The position numbers were made by a program. Shown here in pieces: positions 42,001 through 45,000 of a stretch of 51,299 nucleotides of DNA (position 1 is the stretch's first letter; every line of letters starts with the position of its first letter). Origin of the DNA: a virus (taxonomy: Duplodnaviria; Heunggongvirae; Uroviricota; Caudoviricetes); IMG/VR virus record IMGVR_UViG_641522650_000003. One strand, 5' to 3'.

Positions 42001-45000
42001 GCGATATATTCAAAGGCCTTTTCGGTATCAAGGTCACTTTCAATCGTCGCTGCATACATCGCCTTTATGAAAAGACAGGAAAAAATAAAATTTAAAAACA
42101 GTACATTACGAATGCTCAGACCTATCGTTTAAAGGAGTCGCAATACACACTGCAATACACGATTATTTATAAGATGAGCGGCATCCGTCATAAAGCTGGT
42201 GGATGCTTTTTCTATGCATATATGCACAGTTTTAGTGGGCGTTAATGTCGATATAGGGATCCCCATATCGAGATTGGATACCAGGCTTTTTTAATCAGGC
42301 TGGTGGGCTTTACCTGTTTTGTATGAGTGGTCATCATGACCATGTCATAACAAAAACCCCATATTCGTGGTTTTTCTGTGTCGGGCTATTCTGTCGTTGC
42401 TGTGCTGATTTGGCTGGTGGGCTGAATCATCATTACGGCGATGCAGCTATGTAGACGTTCCGGCCTCCTCAAATTGAGGATTGTGGAAGAATCAATGGGT
42501 TAGTCTTACTTTCCCGACATCCCCCAATGGGGGGTTTCGAAACAATCAATAGCTTAGGCTTACTTCCCCGATTTCCTGCATTGCAGGTTTTCGAAATAAT
42601 CAATGGGTTAGGCCATCGTGCAATTTTGCACTTTGCCAGCCAGCGCAATGTCGCGTTATCAGTCCTCAGATGTGAGGGATGTAGCCAGCTTTTCCCCCAG
42701 TGGGGGATATCCAGCACCGACGGCTTAACTGTGCGTGCCAGCACAAGGTAGCCTTGAACTACTTACTGCATCCCATCTTACAGGCCGTGCCTTCCTGCTT
42801 AACTTTTTGCAATGCAACAAGTCAGCCAGCGCAATTTTGCGTTATCGGGAATATCAGCAAGTTACCGCCGCAATCGTTCCGGCTTCTTCCACTGGTAAGT
42901 ATTTTTCGCGCTCTCCCTCCGTTGTTGAGAACGGCGACGATATGCCAGCAACTCAAGGACTCTTGTTCGTATGTTGCGCATATCCACGCCGTTAAGCTCA
43001 ATACCGTCACGGCGCATCACCTCAGCCACTACACGCACATAATTATCTGCGGTCACGCTGTCCGGCTGCGTGGCCTGTTCGTCATGCTGCTTGCTGATTC
43101 CACAAGCACGGCGGATTAATCGCAGTATTTCGGATTCAGTCATAGCGTACTACGTTACTTATCTTTATTCGGCTGCAACTTATCCGGTACGTTTCCGGCA
43201 GTTTCCATCAGATAATCGGACAGCTGAGGTGTACTGGCAATAGCGGACACTACCATTTGTTCTTTTTTAAGCAGCCATCTGATGATATTTTTCCCTGAAG
43301 GCTGCCGGGGAGATATTCCCCAGACGAGAGTGACGACGCTGACGATTGTAGAAAATCTCAATGTATTCCCGTATTACTGAGATGGCTTCATCCCGGTTAT
43401 TAAAACGATAGTGGCTCAGGCTCTCATTTTTCAGCGTTCCCCAGAAGCTTTCCATCGGAGCGTTGTCGTAACAGTGACCTTTACGCGACATTGATGTTTT
43501 CAGACCAGACTGCTCCTGTATGACCCGGTAATCGTATGCGCAGTACTGTGAACCTCGATCAGAGTGGTGGATTAGCCCGGCAGGTGGGCGCTGGCTCCTG
43601 AGCGCCATAAACAGGGCTTTACCTGTCAGCTCTTTTGTCATGCGCTCTCCCATGGCGTAGCCGACAATTTCGCACGTATAAACATCTTTGATGCCAGCGA
43701 GGTACAACCATCCCTCCTGTGTGGCAACATACGTCAGGTCCGCCACCCAGACCTGATTTGGTGCTGTAGGAGCGAACGTCTGGTTCAGCAGATTTGGCGC
43801 AACTGGCAGATTGTGGTTCGGGTTCGTAGTCGCTCTGAACTTGCGTTTCTGCTTACAGCGTAGCCTTAGCTCCTTACGAAGACGTGCCAGTCGGTCACGA
43901 CCAACGATGATGCCATTCTCTGCCAGCTCCGTCTGGAGCCGCCGGGTTCCATATGTTTCGCGAGTGCGGATATGTGCCACCTTAATCTCCAGTTTTAGCC
44001 GCTCATCACTTTGTTTTCTGTCTGAGGGTTCATGCTGTACCCAGTTGTAATAACCGCTCCTGGATACACCAAATACCTGACACATCGCTTCAATGGGAAA
44101 TTGTTGTCGCCATTGTTCGATTAACGCGTATTTTTCAGCGACTCCTGTGCAAAATACGCTGTTGCTTTTTTTAATATATCTCGCTCAAGGCGAGCTTCAT
44201 TTAACGCCTTACGCAGTTGCAGAATTTCAGATTCCAGTTCAGCCACCGTGCGGGAACCAGGAGTACCGAGCCCTTTTCTGGCGGCGGTAACCCATTGTCC
44301 TAAAGTGCCTTCAGGAAGGGATAATCGGGAAGCGCCTTCACTGATCGAAAGTTGATTTTCAAGAACCGTTCTGACAGCTTCGGCTTTGAACTCTTTAGAG
44401 TAACGTTGGTTTTTTCTGCTCATTATTAGCTCCTTCTGATGCCATTCTATTTCAGGAAGGAGTGTCCGTTAAACTCAGGCTACCTCAGAAAGTTGATCTG
44501 ACCTCTCAGTAAATATCAATACGGTTCTGGCGAGCCGCTTACGTGCAGCAGTCTTATCCGGCAGTTTAAAGGGGAGGACGGAGACCAATGAGGCACTGGA
44601 GCAGATTCAGTGCAGAGGTGACCTGCTTTATCAAACTTAATTGTGACAAAATGGCGATTGAGAAGGTGCAATTGACTTATCCGGATTCGGTCGTGGCGAG
44701 GTGGTGCCCCTGCATTCTGCTAACCGGGTTATGAGCCAGGAGTCAGCGATAGACAAAGGGACTTATCTGACCGGGCCCCCGGAAAAATGGCGGGAGAGAA
44801 TGATACCTTCCTGCTGACGAGACCGGACTTTGAGATGACGAGCGATAGTGCGGCAGTGATGTACAGCCTGATCGGTAGCTGCAAAACTTAACGGAATCGA
44901 GCCGGAAACGTGGCTACGCCACGTGATCAGTGTAATCAACACCTGGCCTGCCAACCGCATGAAAGAGTTGTTGCCCTGGAACGTCACTCTCTCTGTAAAC

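Follow-up and report, generated by a model that had tools for sequence, protein, structure and literature searches.

What is the stretch of about 800 bp at positions 42060–42860 of the viral record IMGVR_UViG_641522650_000003 (Caudoviricetes), which is crowded with palindromes and repeats and holds no convincing open reading frame (ORF)? The record, 51,299 nucleotides long, is called here the window, and the stretch in question the block. A preliminary description, made from the sequence alone, had placed the block at the truncation junction of a prophage and had considered an origin or iteron region, a recombination or packaging site, or tandem small structured RNAs. As described below, the block is the integrase-distal, non-coding end of a helper-embedded phage-inducible chromosomal island (HE-PICI), a phage satellite that has entered a lambdoid prophage, within its portal gene. 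It carries an array of units, each consisting of a palindromic dyad and a predicted site for integration host factor (IHF), and these units match a short segment inside the roi genes of phages. We consider it an even call whether the array is a set of orphan Roi/IHF operators, by means of which the satellite would bind, and so sense or titrate, the Roi protein of its helper.

Structure of the repeat units

The three head-to-tail copies of a 54-nt repeat noted in the preliminary description were recovered by a repeat search at 42460–42513, 42514–42567, and 42568–42621, and Tandem Repeats Finder returned an array of period 54 (42490–42613, 2.3 copies, 78% matches). The pair AGCCAGCGCAAT..GCGTTATC (23–24 nt) was also found, at 42638–42660 and 42824–42846, with a spacing of 186 bp. 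The second member of this pair begins a terminal unit, and the first begins a degenerate copy of it. The units and the degenerate copy are as follows:

42460–42513, plus strand: unit 1, with the dyad CCTCAAATTGAGG at 42467–42479, a spacer of 10 bp, and the IHF consensus AATCAATGGGTTA at 42490–42502
42514–42567, plus strand: unit 2, with the dyad CCCCCAATGGGGG at 42521–42533, a spacer of 10 bp, and the IHF consensus AATCAATAGCTTA at 42544–42556
42568–42621, plus strand: unit 3, with the dyad CCTGCATTGCAGG at 42575–42587, a spacer of 10 bp, and the IHF consensus AATCAATGGGTTA at 42598–42610
42638–42707, no strand assigned: degenerate copy of the terminal unit, AGCCAGCGCAATGTCGCGTTATC, followed by the palindromes CCTCAGATGTGAGG (42664–42677) and TCCCCCAGTGGGGGA (42693–42707)
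42824–42864, plus strand: terminal unit, with the dyad CGCAATTTTGCG at 42830–42841, a spacer of 10 bp, and the near-consensus IHF core TATCAGCAAGTTA at 42852–42864, lying over the stop codon of an ORF of 93 residues

The grammar of the units comprises CCGRYnT, a 13-bp dyad of the form CCNNN-WWW-NNNGG, exactly 10 bp, the motif WATCAANNNNTTR, and then GG. The motif WATCAANNNNTTR is the classical core consensus of IHF, and strict matches to it occur seven times in the window, three of them in the units, where they are co-oriented and 54 bp apart, and four at the ends of IS1 elements. Shuffled versions of the block yield 0.04 strict matches, compared with the three observed. The units are, thus, predicted IHF sites, three of them strict and one, in the terminal unit, with a single mismatch. 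The IS1 copies (at 5822, 15271, 19050, and 23569) each carry the strict consensus TATCAATAAGTTG at one end; IS1 termini are known IHF sites and would make a useful positive control.

The same modules, variable in number and spacing, are present in the non-coding ends of 43 IMG/VR loci, as well as in Escherichia coli satellites that occupy other attachment sites, beside phoQ and beside clpS, and 839 of 5,426 complete E. coli genomes were found to have arrays of such units. Whatever the type of satellite block, the units in it all point the same way. The terminal unit occurs in all block types recovered, although the loci had been picked with a 28-mer that includes it. Among 24 distinct satellite units, the dyad is placed exactly 10 bp upstream of the IHF core in 19, and in an alignment of 20 distinct units the ATCA and TTA parts of the IHF consensus are invariant, while the N4 positions vary. 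The arms of the dyads are 97.5% Watson–Crick paired, with one G–T pair among 120 cells, and five of the six dyad pairs have changes on both sides; the observed values were unmatched in 500 shuffles. The block as a whole contains 14 perfect palindromes (stem of at least 5, loop of at most 4), compared with 3.7 ± 2.0 in dinucleotide shuffles, and 14 is the maximum among all 811-nt tiles of the window.

The invariance of the IHF columns, the strict Watson–Crick pairing of the dyads, and the equal folding of both strands (z-scores of −2.5 and −2.4) argue for a site in double-stranded DNA and not for an RNA. The earlier proposal of tandem structured RNAs is not supported on these grounds, nor by an Rfam scan of 41000–45500 at E ≤ 1, which returned nothing but a chance snoRNA match outside the block. 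Known structured RNAs, such as the C4/isrK immunity RNAs or the repeats of type III antitoxins, were rejected in the same way.

A coding repeat was also considered, since 54 nt correspond to 18 codons and ORFs run through the units on both strands. The longest ORFs in the block (91 residues on the minus strand and 74 on the plus strand) both cross the repeats. The units of other satellites are found in different frames and contain stop codons, and the 98%-identical E. coli copy of the block carries no RefSeq gene annotation, so a coding repeat was rejected. The initial view of the block as non-coding and cis-acting, outside the REP/BIME, ERIC, CRISPR, and attC families, was retained.

Origin of the units inside phage roi genes

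Each of the three tandem units matches the same segment of about 50 nt in a different allele of the phage gene roi, with 88–96% identity over 40–53 nt. Unit 1 is 96% identical over 50 nt to roi of phages of the O157/phi330 type, unit 2 is 88.7% identical over 53 nt to roi of the VT2-Sakai/HK629 type, and for unit 3 the match, of 88–90% over about 40 nt, is to antirepressor/roi genes of the CP-1639 type. Phage HK022 has in its roi gene the dyad type of unit 3, followed by the same 10-bp spacer and the IHF core. These three pieces are the only parts of the block that match a gene, and no alignment to a coding gene runs along its whole length.

The products of these genes, annotated variously as "antirepressor", "Roi", or "DNA-binding protein", consist of a Rha-type N-terminal domain and a KilAC C-terminal domain. 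The segment that corresponds to the units covers codons ~41–58, just past the codons of the presumed recognition helix of the Rha-type winged-helix domain. For HK022, Clerget and Boccard (1996, J Bacteriol 178:4077) reportedly found that the target of Roi is in the roi gene itself, in close linkage with an IHF site; IHF is said to stabilize this binding, and Roi is said to inhibit lytic growth in IHF-deficient hosts.

No Rha or Roi gene is present in the satellites, where only a 16-codon fragment of roi (Roi residues 42–57) is found, never accompanied by neighboring roi sequence, and the units of other satellites lie in different reading frames and in a non-coding context. The units are, therefore, best described as orphan copies of the roi-internal site. 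A decayed roi pseudogene was ruled out because only residues 42–57 are represented.

Dyad types and recognition helices of Roi

Among the phage loci compared, the roi alleles are near-identical mosaics that differ in a single hypervariable cassette, comprising the recognition helix, the wing, and the in-gene dyad. The comparison was extended to distant genes with Rha/Roi N-terminal domains, sampled from phages of E. coli, Klebsiella, Hamiltonella (APSE), Pseudomonas, and Vibrio (ICP1). A palindrome is present at the same codons in most of these genes (in Lahn1, Min27, and LASTA it is only imperfect or longer), and the type of helix tracks the type of dyad across the phages of E. coli, Klebsiella, and Pseudomonas, as well as APSE and ICP1. 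The helix KRHDNVKRTIETL is paired with CCTCA-N3-TGAGG in five phages, DKVKQS[IM]ERL is paired with CCCCA.TGGGG in VT2 and ICP1, NV[KR]V[ST]I[DE]RL is paired with CCTGCAWTGCAG in HK022 and in a Pseudomonas phage, and SRPDSVKRTIETL is paired with CCACAGACTGTGG. The in-gene palindrome also shapes the peptide that it encodes, as in IQLP...EVE, encoded by CAACTTCC...GGAAGTTG.

The satellite units use these four phage dyad classes plus two more. Their dyads are at least as perfect as the phage originals, as seen for CCCCCAATGGGGG compared with CCCCCAATGGTGG in the phage, or for CCTGCATTGCAGG compared with the HK022 dyad ending in GCAGC. Additionally, a satellite unit of class D has an IHF core, whereas the one phage gene of this class that was examined does not. 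It appears from the perfection of the satellite dyads and from the IHF core of the class D unit that the binding features are under selection in the satellite itself. The dyad is likely to be the operator of Roi, and the units probably bind host IHF together with Roi proteins of the helpers, judging from the match to roi and the covariation with the helix.

The satellite in the portal gene

The position of the block becomes clear when it is compared with an intact relative. The block and the adjacent 93-residue ORF are 98% identical to the end of a satellite of about 10.4 kb in E. coli CFSAN064035, the genes of which encode, in order, a tyrosine integrase, AlpA, Bro-N, an Icd-like protein, DUF4222, a RepA-family helicase, SSB, the major capsid protein, a decoration protein, an AlpA-like helix-turn-helix (HTH) protein, a Nu1-type small terminase subunit (TerS), and the 93-residue protein, followed by the non-coding block. 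This satellite splits a lambda-family portal gene in two at position 238/239 of the Phage_portal_2 profile, with the N-terminal piece (positions 2–239) found on the far side of the intact satellite. In the window, the corresponding features are as follows:

41286–42059, minus strand: C-terminal fragment of the portal gene, a late gene of the helper prophage (Pfam Phage_portal_2 positions 238–354)
42058–42065, no strand assigned: identity block of the att crossover and core of attR, AAGGCGAT on the minus strand, 8 bp common to attL and attR of the intact copy
42066–42139, minus strand: AT-rich arm of attR (34% G+C), between the core and the arm motif
42140–42162, minus strand: doubled HE-PICI attP motif cgTGTATTGCagtgTGTATTGCg, a presumed arm-type site of the integrase, which matches the published tgTGTATTGCantgTGTATTGCa
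42862–43143, minus strand: last gene of the satellite, for the 93-residue protein (phrog_1561), a "hypothetical protein" next to terS in intact satellites
43155–43224, minus strand: 3′ remnant (~23 codons) of the Nu1-type terS of the satellite, at the end of which homology to the intact satellite stops
43225–44487, minus strand: insertion sequence (IS) of the IS3 family, ~1.26 kb, which truncates the satellite (NCBIfam transpos_IS3 for both ORFs)

Joining attL to attR restores the reading frame of the portal gene (...AIVKAMYAAT...), and the genes of the satellite and the portal gene are all on the minus strand. In the published HE-PICI attP sites, the motif TGTATTGC flanks the crossover in doubled form, ~81 bp away on the upstream side and ~132 bp away on the downstream side (PMC10111431). 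The doublet of the window is located ~80–90 bp from the core at 42058–42065, and a second doublet is found next to int in the intact satellite (locus L004, 10719–10739), ~125–130 bp from the core. The list of HE-PICI sites includes B:Phage_portal_2:241 (Tommasini, Mageeney & Williams 2023, PMC10111431). Thus, the split portal gene, the frame-restoring core, and the attP doublet together identify 42060 as attR of the satellite and not as a truncation scar of the prophage. The AT-rich stretch noted next to the portal fragment (34% G+C over 42060–42159) belongs to this site. The proposal of a recombination site proved correct, and the suggested search against satellite elements was the right check.

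The actual deletion endpoint is the IS3-family element at 43225. Position 43224 corresponds to L004 1649, within terS of the intact satellite (1580–2122), and the window has lost the integrase with its Arm-DNA-bind_3 domain, AlpA, the RepA helicase, and the late zone, all of which the 98%-identical intact relative still has. An IS-mediated deletion removed all of the satellite except the block end, and what is left is an immobile fossil, with the functions of integration, replication, capsid formation, and packaging gone. Further copies of the IS3-family element are found at 49673–50938 and, interrupted, at 11922–14522. The block of the window has 801 nt, compared with 814 nt in the E. coli copies, and is shorter by 13 bp (window 42270–42300 compared with L001 6210–6250).

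The 93-residue ORF is always the last gene of the related satellites, after terS or a gene for a DUF1441 protein, and the terminal module of the dyad and the IHF-like core extends over its stop codon. Its product belongs to no Pfam family and has no sequence relative in the PDB; an AlphaFold2 model of low confidence (mean pLDDT of 66) contains three helices. A related-locus search of genome contigs with this protein gave no match.

The window is full of copies of IS1 and of the IS3-family element, and this abundance suggests a Shigella-like host genome. Between IS copies beyond the truncated satellite, a TonB-dependent receptor of 696 residues is encoded at 45221–47311 on the minus strand (NCBIfam PRK13486, full length, 1617 bits), which presumably resembles the Iha/IrgA-homologue adhesin-siderophore receptor.

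Packaging and replication

The other half of the earlier proposal, a packaging site, did not stand, as the block contains neither a lambda cosN (with up to 3 mismatches) nor a P2-type cos. The intact satellite carries an exact lambda cosN, GGGCGGCGACCT, with lambda-like cosQ flanks, in a gap of 200 bp (L004 2123–2323) just upstream of its own terS and more than 1 kb from the block. The cosB region of this satellite differs from that of lambda and has a Chi octamer inside, 43 bp from cosN, and its terS has homology to Nu1 only over the C-terminal half, which suggests a satellite-specific pair of cosB and TerS that borrows the large terminase of the helper. In turn, the tail block downstream of the 93-residue gene in a related satellite beside clpS of E. 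coli APEC E18006 holds a cos-like stretch of 83 nt (L003 5142–5224), 89–93% identical to the genome termini or annotated cos sites of SfII, SfV, SfI, ST64B, and phiP27. The tail region can, therefore, hold a cos site in this satellite family.

An iteron-type origin was rejected, since the block has no DnaA boxes and the cores of its repeats differ between copies. In the intact relative, the replication genes are distant, with ~4 kb between the block and the gene of the RepA helicase.

Chi sites and further palindromes

Besides the units, the block contains the following features:

42195–42202, plus strand: Chi site GCTGGTGG, first of three
42248–42271, no strand assigned: 24-bp palindrome TCGATATAGGGATCCCCATATCGA, a module common to ~10 other types of satellite block
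42299–42306, plus strand: second Chi site, within the 12-bp repeat
42328–42342, no strand assigned: palindrome TGGTCATCATGACCA, in a module of 80 nt that recurs at 94% identity in satellites with different integrases
42352–42375, minus strand: orphan, slightly degenerate copy of a 24-nt palindrome of KilA-N genes, with a 92% match to the KilA-N gene of the CFSAN064035 helper prophage
42413–42420, plus strand: third Chi site, within the 12-bp repeat
42618–42631, no strand assigned: palindrome GTGCAATTTTGCAC of the class with an AATTTT center, with a compensated variant, GTGCAAATTTGCAC, in other satellites

Both palindromes named in the preliminary description, TCGATATAGGGATCCCCATATCGA at 42248–42271 and CCTCAAATTGAGG at 42467–42479, the latter being the dyad of unit 1, are present, as is the 12-bp direct repeat GGCTGGTGGGCT (42298–42309 and 42412–42423), which contains the Chi octamer. 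Three of the four Chi octamers of the window are clustered, co-oriented, in a 226-bp part of the block. The flank of the second one differs between the window and the E. coli copies (taccaggcttttttaatcag and tccggttaacctttaatcag, respectively). Chi is enriched in the ends of related satellites, where the sequences around it differ widely from case to case, and ten Chi sites were counted in the 10 kb of the intact satellite. By the known polarity of Chi, the sites in a linear, cos-cut satellite would be oriented for RecBCD moving from the terS/cos end towards att, and the cluster would stop RecBCD that enters linear satellite DNA from that end.

The palindrome at 42352–42375 is a second example of a site from a phage gene found as an orphan in the satellite. 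Its perfect form, AAAAACCACGAATCTGTGGTTTTT, is present in KilA-N ORFs on 70 IMG/VR contigs, whereas the form found in satellites is non-coding. No partner was identified for the palindromes at 42248–42271, 42328–42342, 42618–42631, 42664–42677, and 42693–42707.

Possible function of the array

It is the combination of several dyads of Roi classes, placed side by side, with a satellite that makes no Roi that points to a set of orphan operators. If the array works in this manner, host IHF would bend each module, and Roi of an infecting or induced lambdoid helper would bind the adjacent dyad cooperatively, as reported for Roi of HK022. On a satellite that replicates to high copy after induction, the array would capture Roi proteins of several specificity classes. 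Two outcomes may be envisaged, one of them interference, in which Roi would be titrated away from the autoregulatory site in the helper, and the other sensing, in which captured Roi would report the expression of early genes of the helper to the satellite, by analogy with the action of P2 Cox on P4.

Several observations weigh against orphan Roi/IHF operators. No promoter that the array might control was found in the block, where promoter-like sites are at chance level. For the satellite dyad classes CAGCCGTTGGCTG and ACTCAAATTGAGT, the collections searched gave no convincing counterpart in phages; a look in IMG/VR for roi alleles with CAGCCGTTGGCTG returned only satellite-like non-coding DNA, and one for alleles with CCACAGWCTGTGG returned unrelated phages. 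The covariation of helix and dyad could in part be physical linkage within one mosaic cassette, as only a few codons separate the dyad from the helix codons that precede it, and the similar helices NVKRTIETL and SVKRTIETL are paired with different dyads. The block is a very variable mosaic, the modules of which are shared piecemeal with different subsets of satellites, and some relatives have the terminal unit alone. That the dyad corresponds to the Roi site of HK022 is an inference, and the biological consequence, be it decoy or sensor, is entirely conjectural.

An unlikely alternative is that the array is architectural DNA, on which IHF would act together with a satellite or host protein bound to the dyads, such as the 93-residue protein or the AlpA-like HTH protein, with no part for Roi of the helper. 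Such a structure might fold the end of the satellite for integration, excision, or packaging, or it might activate a promoter that faces outward to int in the excised circle, in which attP and int come directly after the block. The terminal unit at the stop codon of the 93-residue ORF in every block type, the fixed orientation of the units relative to the satellite genes, the phasing of 54 bp (about five helical turns), the cos site in the equivalent block of related satellites, and a weak promoter-like site (42191–42162) that points towards att would all agree with this view. However, a single protein needs a single dyad sequence, yet one grammar is common to at least six classes of dyad, four of which are those found inside phage roi genes with different recognition helices. 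The identity of 88–96% to roi spans the whole unit, beyond the binding features, the att core and the nearest IHF core are ~430 bp apart, and cosN of the satellite is more than 1 kb from the block.

Distinctly unlikely, in our estimate, is that the block is functionless recombination debris, in which fragments of helper DNA (roi, KilA-N, cos) would have been joined by illegitimate or short-homology recombination, possibly stimulated by Chi. The patchwork of modules common to different subsets of satellites, the derivation of the pieces from phage genes, and the dead state of the whole element in the window are consistent with it, and the late zones of PICIs are known to capture helper DNA (PMC10111431). 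Yet only the 16-codon segment with the dyad and the IHF core was ever captured, without its neighbors in roi, and the satellite dyads match or exceed the phage originals in perfection. Conservation is focused on the IHF consensus and on the symmetry of the dyad, while the flanks and the N4 positions drift. The exact spacing, the uniform orientation, the placement of three alleles in a phased array, and the presence of unit arrays in so many complete E. coli genomes (839 of 5,426) also speak against debris.

Regulation of roi at the level of RNA, either by read-through of the late operon, which would be antisense to the roi mRNAs of three helpers because the satellite genes are on the minus strand and the sense strand of roi is the plus strand (40–53 nt, 88–96% complementarity to three alleles), or by plus-strand hairpin small RNAs, is very improbable, for although the folds of both strands are more stable than those of shuffles (z about −2.4 to −2.5) and antisense immunity RNAs are used by P4-type and P1-type elements (PMC10111431), no Rfam family matches at E ≤ 1, the strands fold equally, as palindromes in DNA predict, pairing is strictly Watson–Crick (one G–T among 120 cells), promoter-like and terminator-like sites are at chance level, and antisense pairing predicts no such pattern as invariance at exactly the IHF consensus with N4 left free.

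Returning to orphan Roi/IHF operators, a broader generalization may be offered, doubtful as we consider it, that Gram-negative phage satellites keep at their late end an "operator library" of orphan self-binding sites of Roi/Rha and KilA-N proteins, in multiple specificity classes and paired with IHF sites. If this were true, a replicating satellite would titrate or sense the Bro-network regulators of its helper (Roi/Rha, KilA-N), helper recognition or interference would be protein-free and would have a broad helper range, and a function would be assigned to the long-known binding of Roi within its own gene.

Comparison with known systems

The Roi/IHF site inside roi of HK022, a described although obscure feature, has the same dyad, 10-bp spacer, and WATCAANNNNTTR core as the units, and unit 3 shares with it the dyad CCTGCATTGCAG. 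In the phages, one copy is present, inside the coding sequence of the binding protein, whereas the satellite has three to four non-coding copies of several specificity classes, in a phased tandem arrangement, and encodes no Roi.

P2 Cox binds repeated boxes at the late promoter of P4 and activates this satellite. The array of the window would resemble these boxes as a set of satellite repeats for a DNA-binding protein of the helper that also acts on helper DNA, as is predicted here, but both the protein family and the site are different, and the promoter controlled in P4 is known, whereas none was found here. In lambda cosB, the R sites of Nu1 flank the IHF site I1, and in parS of P1, ParB boxes flank an IHF site. 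The predicted arrangement of the units is similar, with a specific binding protein beside a strengthening IHF bend and with helical phasing. In contrast to these sites, the block is off cos (cosN is more than 1 kb away), no partition system is present, and the dyads vary among the units.

The cos sites of PICIs of the EcCICFT073 type (Fillol-Salom et al. 2018, 2019; PMC6092414, PMC6739421) are also non-coding, helper-directed cis sites at the late end, and the related satellite beside clpS has a cos of the SfV/ST64B/phiP27 type in the equivalent block. Unlike them, the block of the window is without any cosN-like sequence, and its type of satellite has the lambda cos upstream of its own terS. 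The array would, on the strength of its sequence, belong with the helper-directed cis sites of satellites, alongside such cos sites and the Cox boxes of P4.

The element itself is an ordinary member of a described family, the HE-PICIs of the portal site. It shares with B:Phage_portal_2:241 (PMC10111431) the insertion near portal position 239, the co-orientation, and the doubled TGTATTGC at the published distances, and the intact relative has the organization into Integration, Bro, Replication, and Late zones. It differs in that the copy in the window lost its int, replication, capsid, and cos functions to the IS-mediated deletion. The main text of PMC10111431 is silent on Roi and on repeats in the non-coding tail, and IHF is mentioned there only to say that the attP motif is unlike an IHF site. 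In the searchable literature, no description was found of tandem, multi-specificity orphan Roi/IHF sites on satellites, of the conservation of an in-gene palindrome across the Rha/Roi family, or of a Chi cluster in the ends of PICIs.

For annotation, the locus shows that what looks like a "prophage truncation" can instead be an attachment site, used by a satellite embedded there. The palindrome conserved at one codon position of Rha-domain genes extends from phages of E. coli to ICP1. The detection of helpers by Gram-negative PICIs and the interference with them are only partly understood, and the mechanisms known so far act through proteins (AlpA, Rpp) or through cos sites. If the array does consist of orphan Roi/IHF operators, it would represent a purely cis-acting way to engage the early regulators of many lambdoid helpers, including Shiga toxin (Stx) phages, and would point to a function for the Roi/Rha proteins, the role of which has been obscure since the 1990s.

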